DNA from: Candidatus Helarchaeota archaeon
Lineage (GTDB): Archaea; Asgardarchaeota; Lokiarchaeia; Helarchaeales; RDOG01
Direction of reading: 5' to 3'
NCBI GenBank assembly: GCA_019058315.1
Contig: JAHPZH010000007.1
Coordinates: forward strand, 255,089-275,544
Length of the DNA stretch: 20,456 bases
How positions within the stretch are numbered: the first letter of the stretch is position 1; every line of letters starts with the position of its first letter. The position numbers and the translations under genes were made by a program. This document shows positions 7,061 to 20,456 of the stretch, in pieces. A model generated the notes under the pieces. The model worked only from the letters and a program-made list of their open reading frames with translations, was not told the origin of the DNA and ran no database searches.

Positions 7061-8188
7061 TTAGTAAAAAATTATTTCTTTTACAATATCTATTGTATTA
7101 CCCGCATCTCCAGTCGCTTGAGCCTTTAATAATTCCTTTTTATTTGAATAAATTAATAATGCTTTTTTCATACAATTTCCAAAAAATTCTCTTGATAAAG
7201 TCATTGCTTTTACAGGATCCATTCGATATGTAAATTGATCTTCTCCAAACCATCCTTGATAATCTGTGTCTAATGCAGCATAGCAAAAATCAATAAATCT
7301 CCAGATATCACCAGTACCTGTCACCCTATCTTCATCATTGGAATGTAATTTTGCATTATTCACATGAAAATTCACGACTGGTATACCAAAACGTTTCATA
7401 GTATATAGCATATCAGCAGGTTCAACTGCACACATTTGTTCATGTCCATAATCTATTGCTACTCCCATATTTTTACCGCCACACACTTTGTTTACTTCTG
7501 ATGCTACTAAACCGGCTTTGGCAGTTGTAGAAATTATCATATTACCCTCACGTGGCTCATGTAGTTTGGCTTCTACACCAAATTTCAAATTTTTATTTTT
7601 AGCTGCTTTGTTTATTTCAATGCATGCTTCTAGAAAATCATCAAGAATTGTTCCATAATTTACTTGGAAGTTATAATCCCAACCATCAGAACCAGGCCAA
7701 AGAGCTACACTTGAACAACCAACTTCTTTTGCTATTTCAACGCCTTGAAGTGCCACATTAAGTGCATCCTCTCTGATTCTTTTATCCGGATTGCAAACCC
7801 CACCAAGTTTCCATTTAGGATCTGTAAACAAGTTTGTATTCATATTGGTAGGAATGATTTTGAACTTTTCTAAAGCCTCAAGAACTTCTGTTATTTTGTC
7901 TTTAGAGACTTTATAATTTTCATCGATAAAAACTCGTTCATGGAATTCAATACCTTCTATTCCAGCTTTTGCGACTCTGGCTATTTGTGCTACAATTTCG
8001 CTTGAAAATTCAGGATCTTTGATTAAATATCCTTCTGTTGCAAACCTATCTAAAAAATCTCCAGCACACCAATGACCTGCTGCAAATTTAATGCCGAATT
8101 CCTTGAAAAACTCATCCAATTTCATTCCAGAAATAAAAGCTGGATATTTTTTGTTGATATCTTTTAGATTTTTCTCTTCTATTTTCAT
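7061..8188 (-). CDS. Xylose isomerase / L-rhamnose isomerase-like aldose-ketose isomerase
   Basis: EFHE, MNTNLFTDPKWKLGG, WPGSDG, EAKLHEP, DYGHE, FHVNN, NDED, EDQF. GAGGT RBS. Substrate not determinable from sequence. Confidence 0.82.
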   Translation of the reverse strand: MKIEEKNLKDINKKYPAFISGMKLDEFFKEFGIKFAAGHWCAGDFLDRFATEGYLIKDPEFSSEIVAQIARVAKAGIEGIEFHERVFIDENYKVSKDKITEVLEALEKFKIIPTNMNTNLFTDPKWKLGGVCNPDKRIREDALNVALQGVEIAKEVGCSSVALWPGSDGWDYNFQVNYGTILDDFLEACIEINKAAKNKNLKFGVEAKLHEPREGNMIISTTAKAGLVASEVNKVCGGKNMGVAIDYGHEQMCAVEPADMLYTMKRFGIPVVNFHVNNAKLHSNDEDRVTGTGDIWRFIDFCYAALDTDYQGWFGEDQFTYRMDPVKAMTLSREFFGNCMKKALLIYSNKKELLKAQATGDAGNTIDIVKEIIFY

Positions 8189-8333
8189 AATATAACCTCA
8201 TATCCACTAAAATTAATTAATATAATGAAGTTTATATTCTTACATAATAGTAAAAATATTAAAAATAAGTATACATTTTTTATACGTTTTCACTCACCTT
8301 TAATTTATAATTAGATTTTTGGGTGTTAAGGAT

Positions 8334-9518
8334 ATGTCAATCAATTGGGATGATATAACAAAAAATCCAAGTAAAAATCATAAAGTATTAGGAAGTTATC
8401 TACTACAACAAAAAAAGAAAATAGATGAATTAGAAAAAAAACAGAAAGAATTTGAAGAGGCTAAAGAAAATATAAATAAAATGCATGATTCTATGGTTTC
8501 AGAAATAGAATCAAAAGATAAAGTTATTGAAGATACTAAAAAAGAACTTGATAATAGTAATAAAAAAAATGAATCATTACAAAATACTATAATAGATCAA
8601 GAAAAAGAGATTTCTAATTTAAATTCAAAAAATCAAGGATTGGAGGATAAAGTTCAAGAATTAGAAACTAAAGTCAAAGAATCCATCAATTTAACTGTAG
8701 AACTTGGGCAAAAAAAGAGTGAACTTGAAAAATCTAAATCAGAACTTCAAAATTACAAAGATTCCGAAACAAATTTTAAAAATGAAATACAAAAACTTAA
8801 AAACTCAAATTCTGAATTAAGAGATGAACTTCAAAAAATCAAAGATGCAGAAGAAGGGCAAATAAAGGAAATAACGCAATATCAAGAGAAGGTAAGGGAA
8901 TTAACATCTGAGATCCAAAATTTAAGAACAGAATTGGATTCATTAAAAGAGAAACTTCCTAGTAAAGATGATGAAGAAAAATTAGATAACTTAAGACAAG
9001 AAATCTCTAACGCTAAACAAACGATTGAACAAAATAATAATCAAATAGAAGAATTAAAACAAAATATTAAAGATAAAGAAGCAGAAATCGAAAATTTAAA
9101 AGAAGCACCAACTTCTGCTCCTGTTATTGAAATGCTGGCAGTCAAAGGAAAAGAAGCTGCGATTAATACGCTCCAAAATATACTTAATGAAGCAAAATCT
9201 AAAGTTTTAATTGTTACTCCTGATATCAAATATATTCAAGATTTACCATTTCAAGACATTCGAGAAGTAATAAGGATAGATGTCGCAGCTAATATTACTG
9301 ATAAAAATGTTTATGACCATCTCATGGATATACGACCATCATTAAGAGTCCGAGATAACCCCCATATTGACCGATGGGGAATAACAATTGATAATGAAAA
9401 ATTATTTTTTGCTGCTTCAATCGAAGAACCTATTGGATTTATTACCACAAATAGAAAAATGATCGATTTCATCAATGCTATCCTAACAGAATCATGGGTT
9501 CGTGCAAAACGTTTGTAA
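8334..9518 (+). CDS. Long coiled-coil protein with C-terminal TrmB-effector/PLD-like alpha-beta domain
   Basis: About 235 aa of E/K/Q heptad-rich sequence, a short Pro linker (APTSAP), then KGKEAAINTLQNILNEAKSKVLIVTP...ITIDNEKLFF. ATG at 8334 preceded by GGGTG. No Walker A motif, no HTH. Confidence 0.7.
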   Translation: MSINWDDITKNPSKNHKVLGSYLLQQKKKIDELEKKQKEFEEAKENINKMHDSMVSEIESKDKVIEDTKKELDNSNKKNESLQNTIIDQEKEISNLNSKNQGLEDKVQELETKVKESINLTVELGQKKSELEKSKSELQNYKDSETNFKNEIQKLKNSNSELRDELQKIKDAEEGQIKEITQYQEKVRELTSEIQNLRTELDSLKEKLPSKDDEEKLDNLRQEISNAKQTIEQNNNQIEELKQNIKDKEAEIENLKEAPTSAPVIEMLAVKGKEAAINTLQNILNEAKSKVLIVTPDIKYIQDLPFQDIREVIRIDVAANITDKNVYDHLMDIRPSLRVRDNPHIDRWGITIDNEKLFFAASIEEPIGFITTNRKMIDFINAILTESWVRAKRL

Positions 9519-9570
9519 ACTTATTAAATTCTATTCTATCATTTTTTATTAATTTTCAAAAATTAGATAT

Positions 9571-9597
9571 TATTATATATATTATATATATTATATA
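9571..9597. repeat. Intergenic minisatellite (TATTATATA)x3
   Basis: Three perfect 9-bp copies at 9571, 9580 and 9589. Confidence 0.75.
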
Positions 9598-9712
9598 ATA
9601 AATCAAAAAAGACAAAATAGTTTTATTGTTGCTATTGTAGATATAATATACATGGGTTTCTTAGTGAATAAAGATATTATAATCTTTAAAAACTCTGAAA
9701 TGAGGGAATTTT

Positions 9713-10798
9713 ATGACTATTGCAACTGTTGATAAAGATTTACAACCGTTTAATACTTCAATTTCTTATAAACAAGCAGCTATAGGAGTTTTATGGGCAA
9801 TTTCAATTGGATATGGTATATATGTTTTTATATATTTTATTGATCCATTATTAATTTCCATGTTCAATTGGAGTATAATAGGTTTTTTTTCTGATTTTTA
9901 TCTAATTCAAGTTTCTCCTCCAAATCACTTGTATTATATCTCAATCGGATTCTCATTTCTAACTAATATTCCTGCATGCTTAGGTTGGTTTTTTGGGGGA
10001 ATTTTTCTTGGAAGTTATAATAAGAAAAAGAATACTCATTTTAATGGAGTTAAAGGATCTTGGAAATCATTTCAAATTGTTATTATGGCAATAGAACTGA
10101 TTTTTATAGGAAGTGTATTTTATTATCTAATTTCCTATTTAATTGGTTTGAATTTCATACCAATTACAACATTTTTTGGTGGCCTTGTTTTATCCTTAGT
10201 TACACTTTTCATTACTCCTGGTTTTTGGTTATCATTCTCATTTGTTCTAATAGGTGGAATAATTGGCACAAAATTTACAAAACCAATTAAAGCTCCCCCA
10301 ATAAAAAAGGTTCCAAAAATAGTAATTGAACCTGAAGCAAAGCCTACGTTAGCAAAGCCAGCAATCAAAAAAGCTGAATTTGCAAAAACTCCATCTTCTT
10401 CAAGAGCAACACAAGCTGAGACTGCTGTTAAAGTTCCAACTAAACCACCAATTACTGAAAAAGTCGAAATTACTGAAGAGGATCTAAAAATTACTGAAGA
10501 AATCTTGAAAACTGGTATTTGTCAAAAATGTAACAATCCTTTTCCTATTGAACGATTAAAAATGATACAAAAGGGTAATGATACATTCTGTCCAAATTGT
10601 TTTCAGGTTATATATGCGATTGATATTAAACGAAAGAGAGATGATATTAAGAAGATTTTTCGGATTGGAGTCGAATTAATATCAGAAGATTTAGAAAAAG
10701 CAAAAGCAGCTTTTGAAAATGCTTTAGAACTCGCAAAAAAAATAAATGATGATGAGTTGATAAAGGAAATAGAGGAAATAATAAATAAACTCGATTGA
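9713..10798 (+). CDS. Multi-pass membrane protein with Pro/Lys linker, C4 zinc ribbon and C-terminal TPR/MIT-like helices
   Basis: 4-5 hydrophobic segments in the first ~190 aa, a P/K/A/E/T-rich linker, CQKC-x19-CPNC, then EKAKAAFENALELAKKI. GAGG RBS. Confidence 0.72.
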   Translation: MTIATVDKDLQPFNTSISYKQAAIGVLWAISIGYGIYVFIYFIDPLLISMFNWSIIGFFSDFYLIQVSPPNHLYYISIGFSFLTNIPACLGWFFGGIFLGSYNKKKNTHFNGVKGSWKSFQIVIMAIELIFIGSVFYYLISYLIGLNFIPITTFFGGLVLSLVTLFITPGFWLSFSFVLIGGIIGTKFTKPIKAPPIKKVPKIVIEPEAKPTLAKPAIKKAEFAKTPSSSRATQAETAVKVPTKPPITEKVEITEEDLKITEEILKTGICQKCNNPFPIERLKMIQKGNDTFCPNCFQVIYAIDIKRKRDDIKKIFRIGVELISEDLEKAKAAFENALELAKKINDDELIKEIEEIINKLD

Positions 10799-10832
10799 AA
10801 AATTAAGCTATTAAGATTTAAACTAACAAAAA

Positions 10833-13277
10833 TTATTCTAATTTCTTCCTTACAAATTTTTCCTTTTTTTTTCTCTTTTTTCTTTCTACATTCTTTTGTT
10901 TTACATTTTCCTTAAATGATACAATTTTGGTTTGTATTCTTTTTCTTTCTTTTATTAAAACACTTGAAACTGCCCCTATTGAAATAATAGAAATAATAAG
11001 GATAAAATTAAAATCATTAGTTTTTTCCAAATCAATTTGATTTTTTACAAAAATTGTGATAAATTCTGGAATCGGATAATATTGGAACTTAATTTGAACT
11101 TGTCCAATAACGGCTAAGGATAAATTATAGGCTGAAATATTTGCTATGCCTTGGACCTTTTCTGTTTGAATCCTGAAAGTTAAGATCTTATTCTTAATAG
11201 AAACTTGAACACCTGGAGTTAGAGGATCCTCATCGTGAGATACTATTTTACCTAGATCTGTTGAAATTGTAATTAATATCCCATCATTTAATTCTTCTTC
11301 ATTTGAATCATACATTATTCCAGAGTTAATTTTAATTTTACTTGTGCCATCTATGGAAATACTTCTTTTGGAAGGATTTAAAGTGAAATTTACATACGGT
11401 TTACCAGTTTTTAACCAACATTCTAAAAAGGGAAATAAAAACGCATTCCCTCTTTCATTTGTAATAACATCACTATCCCCAATTGCCATGATGCTGGAAT
11501 TATAGAGTATTAAAGGAGTTGTATTGAGGTCTTGATCGTTAAAAGAAATAGCTCCAGCAAATCCTAAATTAGATATGTTTTCTCCCCAAGAAAAAGGTGA
11601 TCCTTGTGCAAAGATTGTTAAGTTTGAGCTTATATCTATAACAGAACTTTGATATGCAGGAAAATATAATTCAGGGATTATTCCTTTTATTAATGGATAT
11701 ATCGGATCAGAGTTTTCATTCGTATTATTATCACAGATTAAATAATGAGTTATATTAATTCCATAATTCATCAAAAGTTCGTTTAAAGGATTCCAACGGG
11801 GTTTAAATCCATAAAGGAGAAATTCCTCAGCGATATTATCCTCACATAAAAAAGTGGAATAACTTTCACCGAATACTAATAATTTAGTTGAAGAGTGTAA
11901 ATTAGAAATTTGGTAACTGGAAATATTTTGTAATGGATTTGAAATGCAAACTGCATCGAAATTTGACACATTTAATACCATTTCTGATGCAAAGACAGAA
12001 AAATTATGATCCCTTAAGTATTTCGCAAAATTATATAGTCCACTGATACTTTGATCAACTTTTCTACTAAAATTTACTTCTGAAAATAAAATACTGCGAG
12101 AAGAGATAACAGGCTTAAAAAAATGAACAACACATGTTTTATTTTCATTAGAATTATTAACTATAAAAATTACGTATCCATCTTCATTTACAGTAATATT
12201 CCATGTAGTCCTATTTTCTGCATTAATCATTTGATTTGGTTCGATAGTACCTCCAGTGATATTTGCAGAGATATTGTAAATTCCATTTGTTGATAAATTT
12301 AAAGAAAAAGTATTAGCAGTAAACAGACTATATTCGGGTAAAACTTGGATATTATTTGATGAAATTGATTTATTTACTAACCATTTAATTATCTTTAGAA
12401 TAAACTTGGAATTATTACCAATTTTCATCCCAAAATTAAATGGTCTTCCGATTCTAGCATCCCCATTCCAAATGAATTCAGCATCGGTTACACAAATAAC
12501 TCTTCCCTCTCCATATTCACATTTTGCACCAACTACCGCATTAAGAGGGTTTGAATTTTCCGAACATATTGCAATTGGAGTTGCTCCTGTACCAAGAGTT
12601 AATGAAGCTGCAGCAAAAAATGTAATATTTGTTAAATCGAAATAAGATGAGTTGAATACTATATATTTCTCATGATAATAATTATAAACGCTATCATTAA
12701 TCCTATTAAAATCAATTGATATATTGAATTTTTCTAATAATTTATTTTGAAAAGTGTTAATTCCATATGGATCATTTCTATTTCCATGATCACCGAAGAC
12801 AAGGAGCCCCCCACCATCAGATACAAATTGATCAATTAAATTTATTTCTTGGTTTGTATAAGTTTGGTTGTTTCCATAATTTAACACAAGTATATCATTA
12901 TTATTTAAAGAAGGAATAGTTTCATTTAGAAATCTTGTACTTGCACTAACGTGAAAAGAATTATTCATTAAAAAAATAGCAAGATCCGAATAGCCTGCGA
13001 ATCCTGTATCCCAAAGGGAAAAATATTGGTGATGTGAAGCATCAAAAACAATATTTATCTCGGATCCATTGGAAATATCACTCATATCTGCTTTGTGAAT
13101 TTTAAATTCTTGGTCTGTAGAATTAATTGATTTATTAGTTAAATAATTATTACTGTAATATGAAACATGATAAAAATTAAGTAAGCTGTTCAATAAGCAA
13201 AAAGTTATTACACCTACAAGTAACAAAAACTTCTTTCTAGAAAATTTGAACCCAATATCCAATGATTTAATTTTCAA
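10833..13277 (-). CDS. Type-I membrane protein with two GIFT/DUF4350 (GldG/IFT52-like) domains and an Ig-like domain
   Basis: N-terminal basic+hydrophobic signal (RKKFLLLVGVITF). Domain 1: IVFDASHHQ...YSDLAIFL...EINLIDQFVSDGGGLLVFGD...GEGRVICVTDAEF...IIKWL. A second similar unit runs from ILFSEVN to ECWL. Then a beta-rich ITISTDLG domain, a C-terminal TM and a Lys/Arg tail. Confidence 0.72.
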   Translation of the reverse strand: MKIKSLDIGFKFSRKKFLLLVGVITFCLLNSLLNFYHVSYYSNNYLTNKSINSTDQEFKIHKADMSDISNGSEINIVFDASHHQYFSLWDTGFAGYSDLAIFLMNNSFHVSASTRFLNETIPSLNNNDILVLNYGNNQTYTNQEINLIDQFVSDGGGLLVFGDHGNRNDPYGINTFQNKLLEKFNISIDFNRINDSVYNYYHEKYIVFNSSYFDLTNITFFAAASLTLGTGATPIAICSENSNPLNAVVGAKCEYGEGRVICVTDAEFIWNGDARIGRPFNFGMKIGNNSKFILKIIKWLVNKSISSNNIQVLPEYSLFTANTFSLNLSTNGIYNISANITGGTIEPNQMINAENRTTWNITVNEDGYVIFIVNNSNENKTCVVHFFKPVISSRSILFSEVNFSRKVDQSISGLYNFAKYLRDHNFSVFASEMVLNVSNFDAVCISNPLQNISSYQISNLHSSTKLLVFGESYSTFLCEDNIAEEFLLYGFKPRWNPLNELLMNYGINITHYLICDNNTNENSDPIYPLIKGIIPELYFPAYQSSVIDISSNLTIFAQGSPFSWGENISNLGFAGAISFNDQDLNTTPLILYNSSIMAIGDSDVITNERGNAFLFPFLECWLKTGKPYVNFTLNPSKRSISIDGTSKIKINSGIMYDSNEEELNDGILITISTDLGKIVSHDEDPLTPGVQVSIKNKILTFRIQTEKVQGIANISAYNLSLAVIGQVQIKFQYYPIPEFITIFVKNQIDLEKTNDFNFILIISIISIGAVSSVLIKERKRIQTKIVSFKENVKQKNVERKKRKKKEKFVRKKLE

Positions 13278-13496
13278 TAAAATTCAGTCCGAATTTTAGT
13301 ATTAGATATTCAATAAATAACTTATTTTTAATATTTGATATATTTATTTTTTTTAATATTTTTTTTGAGGCAATTTTTCATATCTATTGATTAAATTTCT
13401 TTAATAGGGTTAATAATCTCATTATTTAAGATATATAAAACCAAAAATCATCTATATTAACATAGAAAAAATATTAAATTTTGTAGTATTTTTGAA

Positions 13497-14627
13497 TTAA
13501 GTTAATCTTGTCATATATGTCTTTAAAATTAATAATGTTGCCTTTATTTCTTTTAACTCAGATTTAATCTCTGTAAATTCGGTTTGAAGTTCCCTATATT
13601 GATTCTCTAGAGCATTAATTTTAATAGCGATTTTATTAGATTCGTCACCGATAGTAACCATATCTTCAATTTCTAGATATTTTTTTCTTAAATCTTCAAT
13701 AAAATCCGGATCATTTGCATTTTCAAATCCCTTTGGATGTGCCATTTGAATTTTTAAAAAATCTTGATCAATACCTGCTTTTTTTAATAAAGTAATATTA
13801 AGTTTTTTAATTGATTTTGGATCTAATCCGTTTATACCTAATTCTAATGTTATATTCCTTAATATATGGCTAAATGTAGCCGGCTCTAATGAGTGTTGGT
13901 GTTCATCATCCTTTTTATTTTTTCTAAAAGTAAGAAATATTGGTTCATTCTCATTTTCGAAGATTTTTCTTTCGTATTTAAAGTAATCATTTATAAAAGA
14001 ACAACTTTCAGAACTAAAAAACGCGATTTTAGATTTATTATTTTTTGAGCGTTTATAAATAATAATATTTGTGTTTGAAACCTTATCATAATTTAAAACC
14101 CAATTTTGTTTTGTTACTTTAAAAAGATCAGATAAATCCATGGTTGAAGAAAATATTGAGCAAATAATGGCTTTATCTCTGAAATTTTTAGCTCTTCTTA
14201 AAATTTTTTTTAAAAAAAATCTCAACTTTTCAATTTTCAGTCCATTTTCTGTGAGTTCTTTGGATTTAATTCCCTGATCCGGAAAGGGTAGCCAATCATC
14301 TTTAGTCCAGATAATTGGATTCATATTATATCTGAAAAATCTTCCCAATTTACTCCCCAAATATTGTCTTATTGTTCCACCGCTTACGCCTTCCGATTTT
14401 AAGAAGTGACCGAATTGTAATAGCCTGTTTTTTGATTCTCTAATGTTGTTTCTAGCTTCTTCTATTAATTCTTTTGGACTCATTCTCGCAAATTCCGTAT
14501 AACGCCTCAAAACACTTAAATATGCATTTCTCCCTCTCTTTAAATCTTTAATATAATAATTTGTCTCTGGAAACTCAAGAAGCTCTAAATAGATCTTTTC
14601 ATTCTTTCCTATATTGTTTATAGACAT
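13497..14627 (-). CDS. Tyrosine recombinase/integrase-fold protein, apparently catalytically inactive, with C-terminal coiled coil
   Basis: SAM-like N-domain (AYLSVLRRYTEF...SPKELIEEA...TIRQY...FFRYN), box I RDKAIICSIFSSTMDLSDL, KRSK, EPIF, box II LDPKSIKK and QMAH. Catalytic H-x-x-R and Tyr are missing. Confidence 0.8.
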   Translation of the reverse strand: MSINNIGKNEKIYLELLEFPETNYYIKDLKRGRNAYLSVLRRYTEFARMSPKELIEEARNNIRESKNRLLQFGHFLKSEGVSGGTIRQYLGSKLGRFFRYNMNPIIWTKDDWLPFPDQGIKSKELTENGLKIEKLRFFLKKILRRAKNFRDKAIICSIFSSTMDLSDLFKVTKQNWVLNYDKVSNTNIIIYKRSKNNKSKIAFFSSESCSFINDYFKYERKIFENENEPIFLTFRKNKKDDEHQHSLEPATFSHILRNITLELGINGLDPKSIKKLNITLLKKAGIDQDFLKIQMAHPKGFENANDPDFIEDLRKKYLEIEDMVTIGDESNKIAIKINALENQYRELQTEFTEIKSELKEIKATLLILKTYMTRLT

Positions 14628-14794
14628 CCTAATCCTTAATTAAATTATAAATGAATCAATTATAAATCTTACTACTCAAGTAACTAATTTATATATAAAA
14701 AATTTAAAATTTGAAAAATTCTCAATTTTTATTGAATAAATTCCTTTCAAAATAAAAAAATTTTGAGAAAATCACATTTAATTAAACAATTTTT

Positions 14795-14813
14795 GAAAAA
14801 AACACTTATATAG
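14795..14813 (+). promoter_or_regulatory. Candidate BRE/TATA promoter of the giant surface protein gene
   Basis: GAAAAAAACAC followed by TTATATAG (14806-14813), about 160 bp upstream of the ATG. The AT-rich context lowers specificity. Confidence 0.4.
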
Positions 14814-14962
14814 GAAATGTATGTGACATAAGATATAATTAATCAGAATTTTGTCATAAGTAAAAAATTAACAAATTTTCTGTATAAAGTTTTTAGGATA
14901 ATTTTTGAAATAATTTAGTTGTCTAATAATAATTTATACTTTGAATTATGGACATACTTTTC

Positions 14963-14968
14963 AGGTGG
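14963..14968 (+). promoter_or_regulatory. Shine-Dalgarno AGGTGG of the giant gene
   Basis: 6 nt upstream of ATG 14975; supports this start over the in-frame ATG at 14948. Confidence 0.6.
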
Positions 14969-14974
14969 AAAAGA

Positions 14975-17900
14975 ATGAAAAATAAAAAGTTTAAAATTGG
15001 AATGGCTTTATTTTTATCAGTTTTAATAGTTTCTAATTTTGCTAATATTAGCTCTTATATTAGTGTAGACAGTACAACTCCTTTTAATTACATATATTCG
15101 TCAATTATTTTTGATTCAATTAAACCACCTAGTGATATATATAATATAGTTCCACCTGAACAAACTCCGTATTTATCTACTAGTGTGGCAAACGAACCTA
15201 ACTTAACTCGAGTAGATTATCCGGTAATCTTGAGAATGGAAGAACAAGCGAATATATATAGTGCAATAGGAGGATTAAACGAAAGCTACATTCGTGTTGT
15301 ATATTATTCAGGAGATAATGAATGGGTAGAAATACCATTTCAAATTGATGAAAAGGGTTGGCCTTTCATGTGGTGGTGGTCAGGGGTAGTAGGAGGTTTA
15401 GGTCAACCAGTATACGGTAATAATCTCACTAGGACTCATACCTATGTGTCTCAAAATGGAACCAGTAACTATGAACCGAGTAACGGGACTGATACTCAAG
15501 TTGCGTATGCACTCGATTATGATGATCAAATTTGTTTTTATGCAAAAAACGGGAAAATGGTTTCAGGGAGTACATGGTGGAGTAGAAATTTTCCTTACAG
15601 AATTCTAGTTAACATATCGGATCCAATCGATGGGGGACATTCTTTTATGTATATTTACTTTAATAATGTAACAAAGCAAGCGACACCATCATACACAAAT
15701 ATTGTGAGTTGGGATCCGGCCAATTTAATCATTTCGACACCAATTTACCAAAAACAGTTTAGTTCTTCTGATCCTGACATTACCACCATGATGAGAAGTG
15801 TAGCTCCAGGCTTCGATGGAGCGGATGTTATACATGAAATGGATAAAGCATTTACCGGGTTACACCTAAGTAGAGCGTGCACAATCATCACTATTGATCA
15901 ATTTGAGATTGATATAGATATCATGACCTACGGTACATGGGGCGGAACTTATTACAACACAAAGGGAACGACAATTGATAATCCAAATGAAGAAGCAGTT
16001 CAACCATCGAATCCACCTAATACTAACGGTTGGAACGGCTGGGACACCCAAGGAGATCACTTGGCAGTTAAAAACGGTCCCGTCCGAGTTATACTACAAA
16101 AAAGTTCTTACGAACAAGTTTTTATAGTTAATCTCCCAATTGTAGGAGATTTAATAGCTTGGTTTGTTGATCGACCCTTACACCTTTTTTATAAAAATAT
16201 GGAACAAGGTGATGAAGGTATAATTTCAATTCCAGCTGCGGGGTACTCGGTAGTAGATGCAGGTATGTGGCTGGCTACTGTTCGACTTAATAACACATAT
16301 AGATATGATTTTGAAGCCGTTTTTGGTGGTAACCCTGGCGGATACCCAGGATATACTGGTGCAGATGCCAATCCTGACTATGCAGTTGGTAATGAAAAAT
16401 TTATGGTTATGAGTGGAACAGATGCTGATGATGATTTGTCAAATGGAGGAAGTCCATTAACTAATCCTCCGACGTCACCCCCTTCCGGTAATCAAGGTCT
16501 TGCAGATTATATCATGATGTGTTCAGAAGAACATGGAGGAGTTTGGATGTATTTGCCAAGACAAGAGATGATGACTGCTATTCAAACTTATGGAGGCACA
16601 CCTTATATGTATTTAAATGATATTGGGTCATACAGTGAATTAGGGGGATGTGCTACTGGAATTGATCTTAACGATGGACAAACCGTAACCACGGATCCTT
16701 ACTATTTTAGGATTGTTTACGGTGATTTTACTAATGCTTCAGATGTTGCCAAAGCACAGCTCGAATATAAAAGATATAAAACAGATTTAAGTGGTCGCCC
16801 ACATGGCGTAATAGAAGAAATGCCCACTGGTCCTTTAATTGAATATGTAGTTTCTCCAACAGGTTCTATTTATAAGGATGGTGATACTATTACATTAATT
16901 ATTAAAGCAGATAACGATGGATATAATGCTACCATCGACTGGTCAGCGATAGATTCCACGGCAGGAGTAGCAGTGGCAACTTCTGTAGGTCCAGGAACTC
17001 ATCAATATATGGCTACTCACACAATTTCAACATCTAATTCCCTTGGAGATGGTGTCAAAAATATATTTTGTGAGGTAACAAACCTTTCAACTTTTCTAAC
17101 AGCTAATAATACATTTGAAAGTGAACTGGATAACACCAACCCAGTTGCTGCCCAACCATCCGCACCGCCTACACCAATTGGAGGAACATCTGTGACGATT
17201 GATTGGTCTGCAAGCCCGGGTAGTGATGCTGGAGATGTAAAAAGAATTTCTCACTATAGACTACTCCGGAGCACTAGTTCAGGTCCACCTTACGAAACTT
17301 TTGTAGGAAATACGACAGTAACGTGGAGTAATGAGACATCAGAGACTTCAATGCTCGCTACTGGATTAAGTGCTGGAATGAATTATTTTATGCTTCAAAC
17401 TTTTGACTTAGTTGATCTTGTAAGTAATGCTACGCAAGTTTCAACGCAAGTTGTGCTAGCTGTTGATACACCTGCAGAATTGGATGCACTTCCCACATAT
17501 ACCGGTCATAATAGTACCGGTGGGGTCAGTGTGACTCTTAATTGGACTGATAATCCTGGATCAGATGCAGATGGACCTATTAGTGGTTACCGCGTTTATA
17601 GAGCAACCCATGCTTTTCCACAAACAGGTCCTGTAGGATCCTTTGTTGATGTTAGTGGACTTTTAGGATCCTCAACAACAGTATGGACGGATCAATCCTT
17701 GGATATATCAGATGAAAATGATAAATTTATTTATATGCTCGCAACTCGAGATGCTTTAAATAATTGGGCCAATTCGAGTCCAGTAAATACTATTCTCGAC
17801 CTTAGTATTCAAACTTATGCTCAACCTGAAGATTTAGATGCTGCTTCACCTCCCGATGGAGATAATCAATACCGTTCTCCCACAGCACAAATAGTTCTTG

Positions 17901-20456
17901 ATTGGGGAGGAAACGCAGGTGGTGATACCTGGGGAATCGATCATTATAATGTATATCGGAGAGTAGGTGCTGGTAGTCTTGACTTTCTTGCTTCAGTAGA
18001 TTACCCACAAACCTATTATATTGATTATGATGTAACTAATAATGGTTGGTACAGTTATCTTGTTGAAGTTTGCGATAACGCAGTGCCTGAAAATAAATAT
18101 AACGGGACTGAACTTTCTTCAGTGCAGTTAATCGTAACAGGTCCTGGAGCTATTGAAATTTTAAATGTTACAACTACCCCTACAACAGTTAATCAAGGTG
18201 ATACTGGTATATCAGTAACTGCTGCCGTCCGAAATCCAGGCGGTGTTCAAGTTGAACTATATTATTTAAAATTACGATTCTTTAAAGATTTATTAAATGT
18301 CACTAATGAATATACCCAATCTGCTCCTTCACCTTCTTTAAATCAGACATTAGCTTCAGAAGCGACTCAAGTTTTTACTTTCACCGTGGATGTTTCAGCA
18401 TCAGCTACTGTAGGTACGATCACTCTTGATGCGGTTGCAAAAGCTCAAGAATCTGGAAAAACTCCTGTAACGGATTCATCAGCAGCGTTAACAGATTCTT
18501 GGGAAGTTCTAGCACCAAGTAATCCACCTCCCTCCCTTGTGGCAGGTGCACCAGACATCACATTAACTGAAGGTGCTGTTGCAGGTTACGACCTGGAATG
18601 GGCATGGACTGATACAGATCCTAGTGAGTATAATATCACTTTGATCGATACTTATCTAGCTGACGGCACTTGGTCTGTCGGCACCAATGTATCGTATACC
18701 CTACCTGCATTATCAGCTGGCACGTACGAGTATATGTGCGGTGTGAACGACAGTGCGGGCAGCTGGACATCAGATAACGTGACAGTGACGGTTAATCCTC
18801 CTGCAGATACCACACCTCCGAATTTATTGGCGGGTGCCCCTGACATCACGTTGGAACTAGGCTCTGTTGCGGGATACACGTTAGAATGGGATTGGAATGA
18901 TGCAAATCCTAACGAGTATAATATCACACTTATTGATACTTATCTTGCTGACGGCACTTGGTCTGTTGGGACCAATGTAACCTATACCCTTCCTGCGTTA
19001 GGAGAAGGCACCTACAATTATATGTGTGGCGTGAACGACACTGCGGGTAACTGGGCATCTGACAACGTGACGGTGACGGTGCAAGATACCATTCCTCCAC
19101 AATGGAATAATTTAGTAGAGATTTCTGACCCAGTAGAATTAGGAGGTTATTTCTGGGTTAGGATTAATGTTACCGATCTTTCAGGAGTTAATCAAGTTCT
19201 TTTTGAGATTGAAGGAACTAATTACACGATGGTAAATATTGGTGGAGATATGTACTTTAACGATACATGGGTTCCAACTAATCTTGGATTAATTCCATAT
19301 ACTATATATATGGAGGATAATCCTTGGAATACTACAATTTCAAATGTTACGGTGGTAGACAATACGGTACCCTCCCTTGTGGCAGGTGCACCAGATATCA
19401 CTTTAGAACTTGGCTCTGTTGCAGGATATAACCTGGAATGGGCCTGGTATGATTTAGCTCCTAATTATTATAATATCACCCTTATTAATACTTATTTAGC
19501 TGATGGCACCTGGTCTGTCGGTACCAATGTAACCTACACCCTTCCAGCATTGGGATTAGGAACATATGAATATATGTGCGGCGTGAACGACACGTCGGGC
19601 AATTGGGCGTCTGATAACGTTACGGTAACGGTGGAAGACACTACGAGCCCGAATTTAGTAGCGGGTGCACCTGATATTGCATTAAATGAAGGTTCTGTTG
19701 CTGGGTATAGCTTAGAATGGGCGTGGAACGATTTAGATCCTAACGAGTATAACATCACCCTTATTGATACTTATCTAGCTGACGGCAGCTGGTCTGTCGG
19801 GACCAATGTAACGTATACCCTACCTGCATTAACAGCTGGTACGTACGAGTATATGTGCGGCGTGAACGACACATCAGGCAACTGGGCATCTGACAACGTG
19901 ACGGTGACAGTTATTTTTGTAGACAGTACGCCTCCGAATTTAGTAGCAGGCGCACCAGATATCACGTTAGAGCTAGGCGCTGTTGCGGGCTACGACCTGG
20001 AATGGGCCTGGACTGATTTGGATCCTAACGAGTATAATATCACTCTTGGAGCCAGTTATTTAGCTGATGGCAGCTGGTCAGTCGGCACCAATGTCACATA
20101 TACCCTACCGGCACTAGGTCTTGGCACTTATGTTTATGTGTGCGGCGTGAACGATACGTCGGGCAACTGGGCAGTTGATAGTGTGACCGTAACGGTAGAA
20201 GATCATACTGCACCTTCCCTTGTGGCAGGCGCACCAGATATCACGTTAGAGCTAGGCGCTGTTGCGGGCTACGACCTGGAATGGGCCTGGGATGATTTGG
20301 ATCCGAACGAGTATAATATCACTCTTGGAGCCAGTTATTTAGCTGACGGCACCTGGTCTGTCGGGACCAATGTAACGTATACCCTTCCAGCACTAGGTCT
20401 TGGCACCTATGTTTATGTGTGCGGCGTAAACGACACGTCGGGCAACTGGGCAGTTG
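14975..20456 (+). CDS. Giant secreted/cell-surface glycoprotein (>1827 aa, 3'-truncated): signal peptide, ~600-aa unknown head, Ig-like, 3x FN3-like, CARDB-like and >=6 tandem Ig-like repeats
   Basis: Hand translation of frame +2 is stop-free from 14975 to the window end. Starts MKNKKFKIGMALFLSVLIVS. FN3-like VTIDW..ISHYRLLRS, VTLNW..ISGYRVYRA, IVLDW..IDHYNVYRR (~17129-18135). CARDB-like IEILNVTTTPTTVNQG..VRNPGG (~18140-18520). Many N-x-S/T sequons. Confidence 0.92.
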   Translation, partial: MKNKKFKIGMALFLSVLIVSNFANISSYISVDSTTPFNYIYSSIIFDSIKPPSDIYNIVPPEQTPYLSTSVANEPNLTRVDYPVILRMEEQANIYSAIGGLNESYIRVVYYSGDNEWVEIPFQIDEKGWPFMWWWSGVVGGLGQPVYGNNLTRTHTYVSQNGTSNYEPSNGTDTQVAYALDYDDQICFYAKNGKMVSGSTWWSRNFPYRILVNISDPIDGGHSFMYIYFNNVTKQATPSYTNIVSWDPANLIISTPIYQKQFSSSDPDITTMMRSVAPGFDGADVIHEMDKAFTGLHLSRACTIITIDQFEIDIDIMTYGTWGGTYYNTKGTTIDNPNEEAVQPSNPPNTNGWNGWDTQGDHLAVKNGPVRVILQKSSYEQVFIVNLPIVGDLIAWFVDRPLHLFYKNMEQGDEGIISIPAAGYSVVDAGMWLATVRLNNTYRYDFEAVFGGNPGGYPGYTGADANPDYAVGNEKFMVMSGTDADDDLSNGGSPLTNPPTSPPSGNQGLADYIMMCSEEHGGVWMYLPRQEMMTAIQTYGGTPYMYLNDIGSYSELGGCATGIDLNDGQTVTTDPYYFRIVYGDFTNASDVAKAQLEYKRYKTDLSGRPHGVIEEMPTGPLIEYVVSPTGSIYKDGDTITLIIKADNDGYNATIDWSAIDSTAGVAVATSVGPGTHQYMATHTISTSNSLGDGVKNIFCEVTNLSTFLTANNTFESELDNTNPVAAQPSAPPTPIGGTSVTIDWSASPGSDAGDVKRISHYRLLRSTSSGPPYETFVGNTTVTWSNETSETSMLATGLSAGMNYFMLQTFDLVDLVSNATQVSTQVVLAVDTPAELDALPTYTGHNSTGGVSVTLNWTDNPGSDADGPISGYRVYRATHAFPQTGPVGSFVDVSGLLGSSTTVWTDQSLDISDENDKFIYMLATRDALNNWANSSPVNTILDLSIQTYAQPEDLDAASPPDGDNQYRSPTAQIVLDWGGNAGGDTWGIDHYNVYRRVGAGSLDFLASVDYPQTYYIDYDVTNNGWYSYLVEVCDNAVPENKYNGTELSSVQLIVTGPGAIEILNVTTTPTTVNQGDTGISVTAAVRNPGGVQVELYYLKLRFFKDLLNVTNEYTQSAPSPSLNQTLASEATQVFTFTVDVSASATVGTITLDAVAKAQESGKTPVTDSSAALTDSWEVLAPSNPPPSLVAGAPDITLTEGAVAGYDLEWAWTDTDPSEYNITLIDTYLADGTWSVGTNVSYTLPALSAGTYEYMCGVNDSAGSWTSDNVTVTVNPPADTTPPNLLAGAPDITLELGSVAGYTLEWDWNDANPNEYNITLIDTYLADGTWSVGTNVTYTLPALGEGTYNYMCGVNDTAGNWASDNVTVTVQDTIPPQWNNLVEISDPVELGGYFWVRINVTDLSGVNQVLFEIEGTNYTMVNIGGDMYFNDTWVPTNLGLIPYTIYMEDNPWNTTISNVTVVDNTVPSLVAGAPDITLELGSVAGYNLEWAWYDLAPNYYNITLINTYLADGTWSVGTNVTYTLPALGLGTYEYMCGVNDTSGNWASDNVTVTVEDTTSPNLVAGAPDIALNEGSVAGYSLEWAWNDLDPNEYNITLIDTYLADGSWSVGTNVTYTLPALTAGTYEYMCGVNDTSGNWASDNVTVTVIFVDSTPPNLVAGAPDITLELGAVAGYDLEWAWTDLDPNEYNITLGASYLADGSWSVGTNVTYTLPALGLGTYVYVCGVNDTSGNWAVDSVTVTVEDHTAPSLVAGAPDITLELGAVAGYDLEWAWDDLDPNEYNITLGASYLADGTWSVGTNVTYTLPALGLGTYVYVCGVNDTSGNWAV
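18530..20456 (+). repeat. Coding tandem array of ~279-bp (93-96 aa) Ig-like repeats, interrupted by one unrelated 91-aa Ig-like unit
   Basis: Units PxLVAGAPDITL...EWAW.D..P.EYNITL..YLADGTWSVGTNVTYTLPAL..GTYEYMCGVND..GNW..D.VTVTV start at 18530, 18818, 19370, 19649, 19934 and 20213 (truncated). The different unit is at 19097-19369. Confidence 0.93.

Follow-up and report, generated by a model that had tools for sequence, protein, structure and literature searches.

The stretch of DNA analyzed here (the window; 20,456 nucleotides of contig JAHPZH010000007.1 from Candidatus Helarchaeota archaeon) contains a tyrosine-recombinase-like gene at 13497..14627 on the minus strand, whose product, P0001, has 376 residues. 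Head-to-head with it, a gene for a giant secreted surface protein occupies 14975..20455 on the plus strand and runs off the contig end; its immunoglobulin (Ig)-like and PKD repeats were recognized through Pfam matches. The two genes are separated by a divergent intergenic region of 347 bp (14628..14974). An earlier note on this locus had proposed that the recombinase lost its catalytic residues and was repurposed as a DNA-binding regulator, possibly of the giant gene. Based on the open reading frame (ORF), the Pfam match, the predicted model, structure matches, and substitution rates, P0001 is very probably catalytically dead and kept by selection, rather than freshly decayed.

The ORF was intact, as the earlier note had stated, and the integrase scaffold was confirmed by both the Pfam match and a two-domain model. 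Against PF00589 (Phage_integrase), P0001 scored 32.8 bits with a cut-off of 27.1 over residues 141-297, and the superfamily threshold was passed; the match stopped 16 profile positions early, ahead of the Tyr region. The NCBIfam models of XerA, XerC, and XerD scored far under their cut-offs, and all ended at or before residue 297. As the archaeal XerA equivalog NF040815 gave only 37.3 bits with a cut-off of 220, P0001 was not assigned to XerA. An exhaustive HMMER search returned 108 representative relatives, and 79 of them were aligned together with two further sequences, the XerA-like paralog of the window's own genome and a homolog from a relative with a complete genome, giving an alignment of 81 sequences (A3). 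The AlphaFold2 (AF2) model built on this alignment reached a predicted local distance difference test (pLDDT) score of 91.5 and a predicted template modeling (pTM) score of 0.83, whereas a 3-sequence alignment had given an unusable pLDDT of 38.9.

In the model, a helical N-domain comes first, then the catalytic-type domain, which has the usual beta-hairpin, and finally one long C-terminal helix. The helices of the N-terminal core-binding-like domain (residues 1-112; 14292..14627, minus strand) match those of the N-domains in Cre, XerA, and IntI, the aligned range beginning at about residue 13-19; within the gene, DNA conservation in the three-locus alignment peaks here, at 14298-14372. The catalytic-type domain (residues 135-300; 13728..14225, minus strand) was delimited by the Pfam match and column counts and carries a degenerate site consisting of D164, R193, K195, K271, K274, and H297. 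The coil that the earlier note had seen at the C-terminus was modeled as a single helix of 47 residues (329-375; 13503..13643, minus strand; pLDDT 92-98), which may serve as an oligomerization coil. A complex prediction with two copies of residues 300-376 (score 0.02, no control runs alongside) favored neither self-association nor its absence. The protein is basic, with a pI of 9.4-9.6 and 44 invariantly basic positions. Foldseek and VIA-align matched the model to tyrosine recombinases over both domains. The best match was Pyrococcus abyssi XerA (4a8e, Z 18.2), followed by Cre (1f44_A; Z 15.6, root-mean-square deviation 3.2 across 252 residues) and by IntI, Tn1549 Int, XerH, and lambda Int (Z 13-16), and the non-catalytic repressors SroF, MrpR, and YopR were matched at Z 11-12.5 (11.2-12.5). 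By its predicted structure, P0001 is a protein of the tyrosine-recombinase fold with both domains intact.

The catalytic positions were then read from A3, in which the XerA-like paralog anchors the mapping by placing R, H, R, H, and Y in columns 164, 271, 274, 297, and 305. The codons named in the earlier note were correct, namely D164 at 14136-14138, K271 and K274 at 13806-13817, H297 at 13737-13739, and N305 at 13713-13715. In the box I Arg column (164), P0001 has Asp, as do 44/81 family members, while Arg is found in 6/81. The hairpin Arg (193; codon 14049-14051) and hairpin Lys (195) are both present in P0001, and the family has Arg in 75/81 and Lys in 79/81 sequences, respectively. In the so-called His II column (271), P0001 has Lys, the commonest residue there (44/81, with His in 30/81). 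Its His in the His III column (297) is shared by 68/81. By contrast with the family, P0001 has Lys in the Arg II column (274; Arg in 79/81) and Asn in the Tyr column (305; Tyr in 75/81), Asn being confined to P0001 and its two full-length orthologs. The assignment of the AAT codon at 13713..13715 (minus strand) to the nucleophilic Tyr position was also seen in a pairwise alignment with a Tyr-bearing homolog, whose Tyr falls at residues 305/306 of P0001.

Compared with an active recombinase, P0001 thus lacks the Tyr, Arg II, and Arg I but has the hairpin Lys (K195) and the His/Trp III residue (H297). Asp at box I is not diagnostic of inactivation because it is the norm in the parent family. The caveat of the earlier note, that box I Arg loss and a C-terminal coil also occur in some archaeal integrases, was therefore well founded: since both are normal across the parent family, only the losses of Tyr and Arg II are diagnostic. 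The same note had taken the loss of HxxR and Tyr as the diagnostic part; this stood for Arg II (R to K) and Tyr but not for the H to K change, since Lys is commonest at that position. Judged from the alignment, the real catalytic losses in P0001 are only Lys274 and Asn305.

R193 may substitute for the missing box I Arg. The hairpin Arg stands two residues ahead of the hairpin Lys in the same 75/81 family members, and five relatives with a box I Arg (P0025, P0037, P0065, P0078, and P0088) lack the hairpin Arg. This pattern suggests that Arg I was relocated within an uncharacterized family of Asgard mobile-element integrases, a clade effect being the alternative. Two further family members lack the Tyr, P0078 and P0010 (locus L029), the latter also without the hairpin Lys and His and surrounded by small ORFs on an element-like contig. 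As these two are also without Tyr, inactive copies arose more than once in the family.

Full-length close homologs of P0001 are rare, with only two found among 5.8 billion clusters. P0002, on a metagenome contig of Promethearchaeota type, is 69% identical to P0001, and P0003, from a Promethearchaeota metagenome-assembled genome, is 62% identical. A fourth ortholog, P0005 at locus L151, is an N-terminal fragment of 117 amino acids, and a search of genome and metagenome contigs with the alignment of the dead clade gave no additional members. At about 1050-1176 of L151, the recombinase-like gene gives way abruptly after residue 112 to unrelated GC-rich sequence; the break is due to a chimeric assembly or to an insertion that disrupts the gene in that population, and L151 was used for the upstream region only.

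Asn at the Tyr site is common to P0001, P0002, and P0003, and since three independent assemblies carry it, Asn305 is not an assembly error. The other catalytic positions differ among the three proteins. Position 274 is Lys in P0001 and P0002 and Arg in P0003, R193 is kept in the first two but not in P0003, and position 297 is His in P0001 and Tyr in both others, while K195 is present in all three. As all three have N305 yet differ elsewhere in the site, the sequences fit a history in which the nucleophile was lost first, once and early, and selection on the remaining active site was relaxed afterwards. The three-way amino acid identity follows the domains: it is 0.20 in the His/Tyr segment (residues 286-310), whereas the N-domain, the coil, and the catalytic domain outside that segment reach 0.56, 0.54, and 0.58, respectively.

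These comparisons also bear on whether P0001 might still be a recombinase, for example an invertase that flips the giant-gene promoter by means of another nucleophile or cleavage in trans. The position beside a surface-protein promoter resembles switches of the FimB/FimE type, and part of the site persists: K195 throughout the three proteins, R193 in P0001 and P0002, and His297 in the window protein alone. However, as regards the alternative Tyr raised in the earlier note, no Tyr within residues 286-330 is invariant among the three orthologs. Y317, a structural Tyr kept in 74/81 sequences, is Cys in P0003, the Tyr at position 297 of P0002 and P0003 is His in P0001, and Arg II is replaced by Lys in two of the three proteins. 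No conserved inverted repeats were found at the promoter either; the flanking pairs are AT-rich, 70-86% complementary, and different between loci, which, with the nucleophile absent, argues against an invertible switch. Continued recombinase activity is hence regarded as highly improbable.

The gene is under purifying selection. Pairwise ratios of nonsynonymous to synonymous substitution rates (dN/dS) were 0.24-0.29 at dS 0.73-0.87 for the three full-length orthologs, and the frames are undamaged in three lineages (375-376 amino acids, with a sole length difference of 1 amino acid). The earlier note had named orthologs that retain the catalytic residues and a dN/dS near 1 as the signs of recent decay; with Asn in place of Tyr in all three and these low ratios, neither sign was seen. 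The gene is nevertheless no slow evolver. Its dN of 0.17-0.24, against 0.045-0.07 for the flanking enzyme genes (86-92% identical between the window and locus L001), shows that it evolves about five times faster than these, though clearly not neutrally.

This fast evolution relative to the neighbors would agree with the gene being what is left of an integrated element, without function but still undisrupted, and so would the very narrow clade and the composition of the region. At about 8000-15000 of the window, the guanine-cytosine (GC) content is 0.24-0.30, whereas the enzyme genes have 0.30-0.37 and the giant gene 0.36-0.44, and this stretch includes a two-gene difference between relatives. 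Two extra genes at 9713-13277, encoding 361 amino acids (no family) and 814 amino acids (ABC_transp_aux/DUF4350-like), lie between the recombinase-like gene and a coiled-coil gene. In L001 (1889-2162) both are missing, and the recombinase-like gene leads directly to the coiled-coil protein and sugar-enzyme genes, while L002 has the 814-amino-acid gene; by this comparison, the difference is a recent indel. A remnant is nevertheless hard to reconcile with the dN/dS values at dS of about 0.8, with the frames kept in three lineages, with conservation patterned by domain (N-domain and coil kept, old active-site segment relaxed), and with the conserved promoter and Shine-Dalgarno region, and it is considered improbable. 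The coiled-coil gene in the low-GC stretch was also fast-evolving (63% identity, dN/dS of about 0.31).

The origin of the dead clade was addressed with a quick maximum-likelihood tree. P0001, P0002, and P0003 form one clade with a support of 100 in the Shimodaira-Hasegawa-like approximate likelihood ratio test (SH-aLRT), which is sister to the Tyr-bearing P0004 (support 100) and nested deep within Tyr-bearing sequences. P0004 and P0006 adjoin D5-type primase genes and strings of small ORFs without annotation, a typical mobile-element context. Sequence relationships thus place a single origin of the P0001 lineage inside an active family, by descent from integrases of mobile elements. A search of 60 related genomes with the single protein yielded one distant homolog of the long form (28% identity), in which box I has Asp and KxxR, His, and Tyr are intact. 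A profile search of the same genomes found about four with a long-form member, the other matches being a housekeeping XerA-like gene of about 315 amino acids. In the genome of the window, the only PF00589 genes are the recombinase-like gene and one canonical XerA-like gene (R, HxxR, H, and Y). The C-terminal coil is common to the parent family, whereas the dead clade is confined to a very narrow, genus-level lineage of Promethearchaeota.

As to the surroundings, the earlier note was correct that no tRNA, att repeat, or phage or plasmid gene is nearby: the window has no tRNA, no att-like repeats were found at the locus, and a Pfam scan of nine neighboring ORFs gave no phage, plasmid, or mobile-element gene family. 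The recombinase-like gene stands head-to-head with the giant gene in 4/4 loci (window, L001, L002, and L151), and the N-termini of the giant proteins are 55-56% identical between loci. The head domain of the giant protein (about 600 amino acids) has three paralogs elsewhere in G000, the genome of the window, which are 52-62% identical and lie in ORFs of 954-3050 amino acids (C2:299827-301650, C3:126597-128357, and C9:91290-92936); they form a small family of giant surface proteins. Membership in aloposons was also considered. These giant-gene transposons of Asgard archaea have tandem giant genes, tRNA integration, and, upstream, a set of four genes of which one codes for a ParA-like ATPase (PMC8813620). 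The window has no tRNA, and the nine scanned ORFs gave no ParA match; the downstream side of the giant gene lies beyond the contig end. The giant protein on the contig of P0006 is unrelated to that of the window.

The length of 347 bp for the intergenic region, given in the earlier note, holds if the giant gene begins at ATG 14975. The ORF listing starts the gene at ATG 14948, but the orthologs begin at the methionine of MKNK, which corresponds to ATG 14975, and a GGTGG Shine-Dalgarno sequence lies 7 nt upstream of it. Judged from these sequences, 14975 is probably the true start, and the length was upheld. Within the region, conserved blocks were found in three- and four-locus alignments, with three-way DNA identities of 0.8-0.9 at 14778-14850, 0.73-0.8 at 14673-14717, and 0.77 at 14883-14912, compared with just 0.13-0.5 in the 3' flank of the recombinase-like gene. 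Two putative promoters were called from the archaeal consensus of the transcription factor B recognition element (BRE) and TATA box. A TATA-like box at 14688..14699 (minus strand), about 60 nt upstream of the ATG of the recombinase-like gene, is kept in four loci except for one base change in L151. An A-rich BRE-like tract with a TATA-like box at 14793..14814 (plus strand) appears to face the giant gene, the orientation being taken from the A-rich upstream tract; it lies about 160 nt upstream of ATG 14975, with a predicted leader of about 135 nt. The giant-gene TATA core and its neighboring bases are invariant in 4/4 loci, and the A-rich tract is unchanged among the three closer loci, with L151 lacking most of it. 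Both TATA cores remain in L151, as does the block that follows the TATA box of the recombinase-like gene. The conserved blocks would thus be mostly two divergent BRE/TATA core promoters, with flanking sequence conserved as well.

Several other candidate features of the region were checked. An operator-like palindrome just 3' of the giant-gene TATA was rejected, being altered in L002 and absent in L151. A structured RNA was rejected as well, as Rfam gave only a chance miRNA match inside the coding region and RNAalifold gave -9.95 kcal/mol with an unfavorable covariation term. No conserved small ORF was found, the sole ORF there having 24 amino acids. In the giant-gene leader, a 16-nt motif (14889..14904, plus strand), the core of which is invariant in three loci, has three exact copies in the 5.8-Mb genome against 0.04 expected. 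The other copies, at C1:431678 and C1:432455 of G000 (L030 1178-1199 and 1955-1976), both lie in a gene-poor region of 1.5 kb made of tandem repeat units, at least the middle one lying between the arms of a 10-bp inverted repeat; downstream of this region is a gene that weakly matches a winged helix. Across the wider genome contigs, only scattered matches to the motif in unrelated bacteria were found, as chance predicts at that database size.

The explanation we favor is that the integrase of an Asgard-archaeal mobile element became fixed in the chromosome, that its nucleophilic Tyr was lost in the common ancestor of a narrow group of Promethearchaeota, and that selection kept the gene afterwards. 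By its model and sequence, P0001 still has the complete C-clamp architecture of core-binding and catalytic-type domains, the basic surface, and the long C-terminal helix of the parent family. Because these are retained, non-catalytic, sequence-specific DNA binding, probably as an oligomer, is the most likely mode of action. The most plausible target would be its own divergent promoter region, resulting in autoregulation and/or control of the adjacent giant gene. DNA binding, oligomerization, and the identity of the target are what we infer, and this explanation as a whole is considered somewhat probable.

Several results weigh against it. The sampling amounts to three full-length sequences and one fragment, and the gene evolves fast compared with the enzyme genes beside it, as described above. 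The head-to-head linkage is weak evidence; since the flanking enzymes are 86-92% identical, the loci come from close relatives, in which adjacency is expected by default. None of the three giant-gene paralogs of the same genome adjoins a recombinase-like gene, and the intergenic blocks are unique in the genome and absent upstream of these paralogs, so no regulon is visible. In L151, the stretch between the giant-gene TATA and the predicted start site, where an operator might lie, is not conserved. The intergenic sequences are compatible with a local operator, but core promoters alone would explain their conservation equally well. As for the repurposing proposed in the earlier note, the inactivity, the old loss shared by orthologs, the purifying selection, and the mobile-element ancestry were upheld, while the linkage to the giant gene contributed little; the synteny that the note had asked for was present in all four loci but missing at the paralogs. 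Control of the giant gene by P0001 is therefore regarded as possible but doubtful. Equally tentative is the fuller version, in which an exapted integrase would act as a chromosomal non-cleaving DNA-binding factor on the promoter shared with the giant adhesin-like gene and control its expression.

A non-catalytic and selected P0001 could also have a role unconnected to the giant gene, namely occupying the att sites of related elements, so that their integration is blocked or modulated, or acting as the non-cleaving partner of an active recombinase, which might be the single XerA-like enzyme of the genome or the integrase of an incoming element. Parent mobile-element integrases are sporadic in the relatives (4/60 genomes with a long-form member), a single further PF00589 gene is present in the genome, P0001 is tied to the giant-gene paralogs by neither a regulon nor a repeated site, and with TnsF there is a precedent for an inactive recombinase derivative as a DNA-targeting subunit (PMC10293859). 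What speaks against such a role is that the nine scanned ORFs include no element genes, the locus has neither att-like repeats nor tRNA, the giant gene and not a partner gene is the only conserved adjacent gene, and the proposal has analogy as its sole basis. It is thus considered rather unlikely, and non-catalytic binding at the divergent promoter is retained as the preferred explanation.

The source name of P0003 is "tyrosine-type recombinase/integrase", and such an annotation would falsely flag a mobile element here. If P0001 is a DNA-binding factor, the domestication of integrases as regulators, so far documented for Bacillus phages, Tn7-like transposons, and eukaryotes, extends to the chromosomes of cellular archaea. 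If it also controls the giant gene, it would be the first case in Archaea of a tyrosine recombinase exapted as a transcription or architectural factor of the cell. It would then be a prokaryotic parallel, in the lineage closest to eukaryotes, to the Crypton-derived genes and to Ndc10, a eukaryotic case of an exapted recombinase domain used for DNA binding. Moreover, the dead clade and its Tyr-bearing sister P0004 make up a natural matched pair, by which DNA recognition and catalysis could be told apart in an uncharacterized Asgard integrase family. The reach of these points is limited by the very narrow distribution, a single genus-level lineage.

Among known systems, the true homologs of P0001 are the Asgard mobile-element integrases (P0004, P0006, the G054 homolog, and others; 25-39% identity). 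Their domains come in the same order, and they have in common with it the C-terminal coil, a box I of the form SSGxD, an R-x-K hairpin, and a KxxR motif. They differ in keeping Arg II, His, and Tyr and in standing beside primase genes and small ORFs, whereas P0001 has Lys274, Asn305, and conserved chromosomal synteny. Archaeal XerA (4a8e and 5hxy) is the top structural match, yet P0001 falls far below the XerA cut-off, and the genome has its separate XerA-like gene. The characterized archaeal integrase families tabulated in PMC5861418 all keep Arg I, Arg II, and Tyr, and a literature search on archaeal recombinases without Tyr found no description of an archaeal inactive recombinase-fold DNA binder.

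The DNA-binding mode proposed for P0001 would resemble that of MrpR/YopR/SroF and TnsF. MrpR/YopR, the master repressor of SPbeta, has the integrase fold and binds DNA, with recombination lost (PMC10516654), and SroF of phi3T is an integrase-fold repressor whose structure was solved on DNA (bioRxiv 10.1101/2025.11.27.690993). Like these, P0001 has the full two-domain fold with recombinase residues lost, and by this analogy it would bind DNA. In contrast to P0001, in which the Tyr was lost, MrpR keeps Tyr and Lys and lost Arg and His residues; the repressors are phage-encoded in Bacillus, while P0001 is chromosomal in an Asgard archaeon and has the additional C-terminal helix of 47 residues. 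The likeness is at the fold level only, as a phmmer search of P0001 against sequences of the Protein Data Bank (PDB) gave no recombinase-fold match at E up to 10. TnsF of Tn6022-like Tn7 transposons is an inactive recombinase derivative that selects targets (PMC10293859), but it has N-terminal zinc fingers and no catalytic pocket and is part of a transposition machine, whereas no transposon genes were found at the P0001 locus. In eukaryotes, Crypton-derived genes (DUF3504) carry a tyrosine-recombinase domain domesticated for DNA binding (PMC3212892); with these and Ndc10, P0001 shares the concept, the origins being unrelated. Since there is no detectable sequence relationship, P0001 and MrpR/YopR/SroF were inactivated independently, and P0001 is an independently arisen case of a known phenomenon, the exapted inactive tyrosine recombinase.

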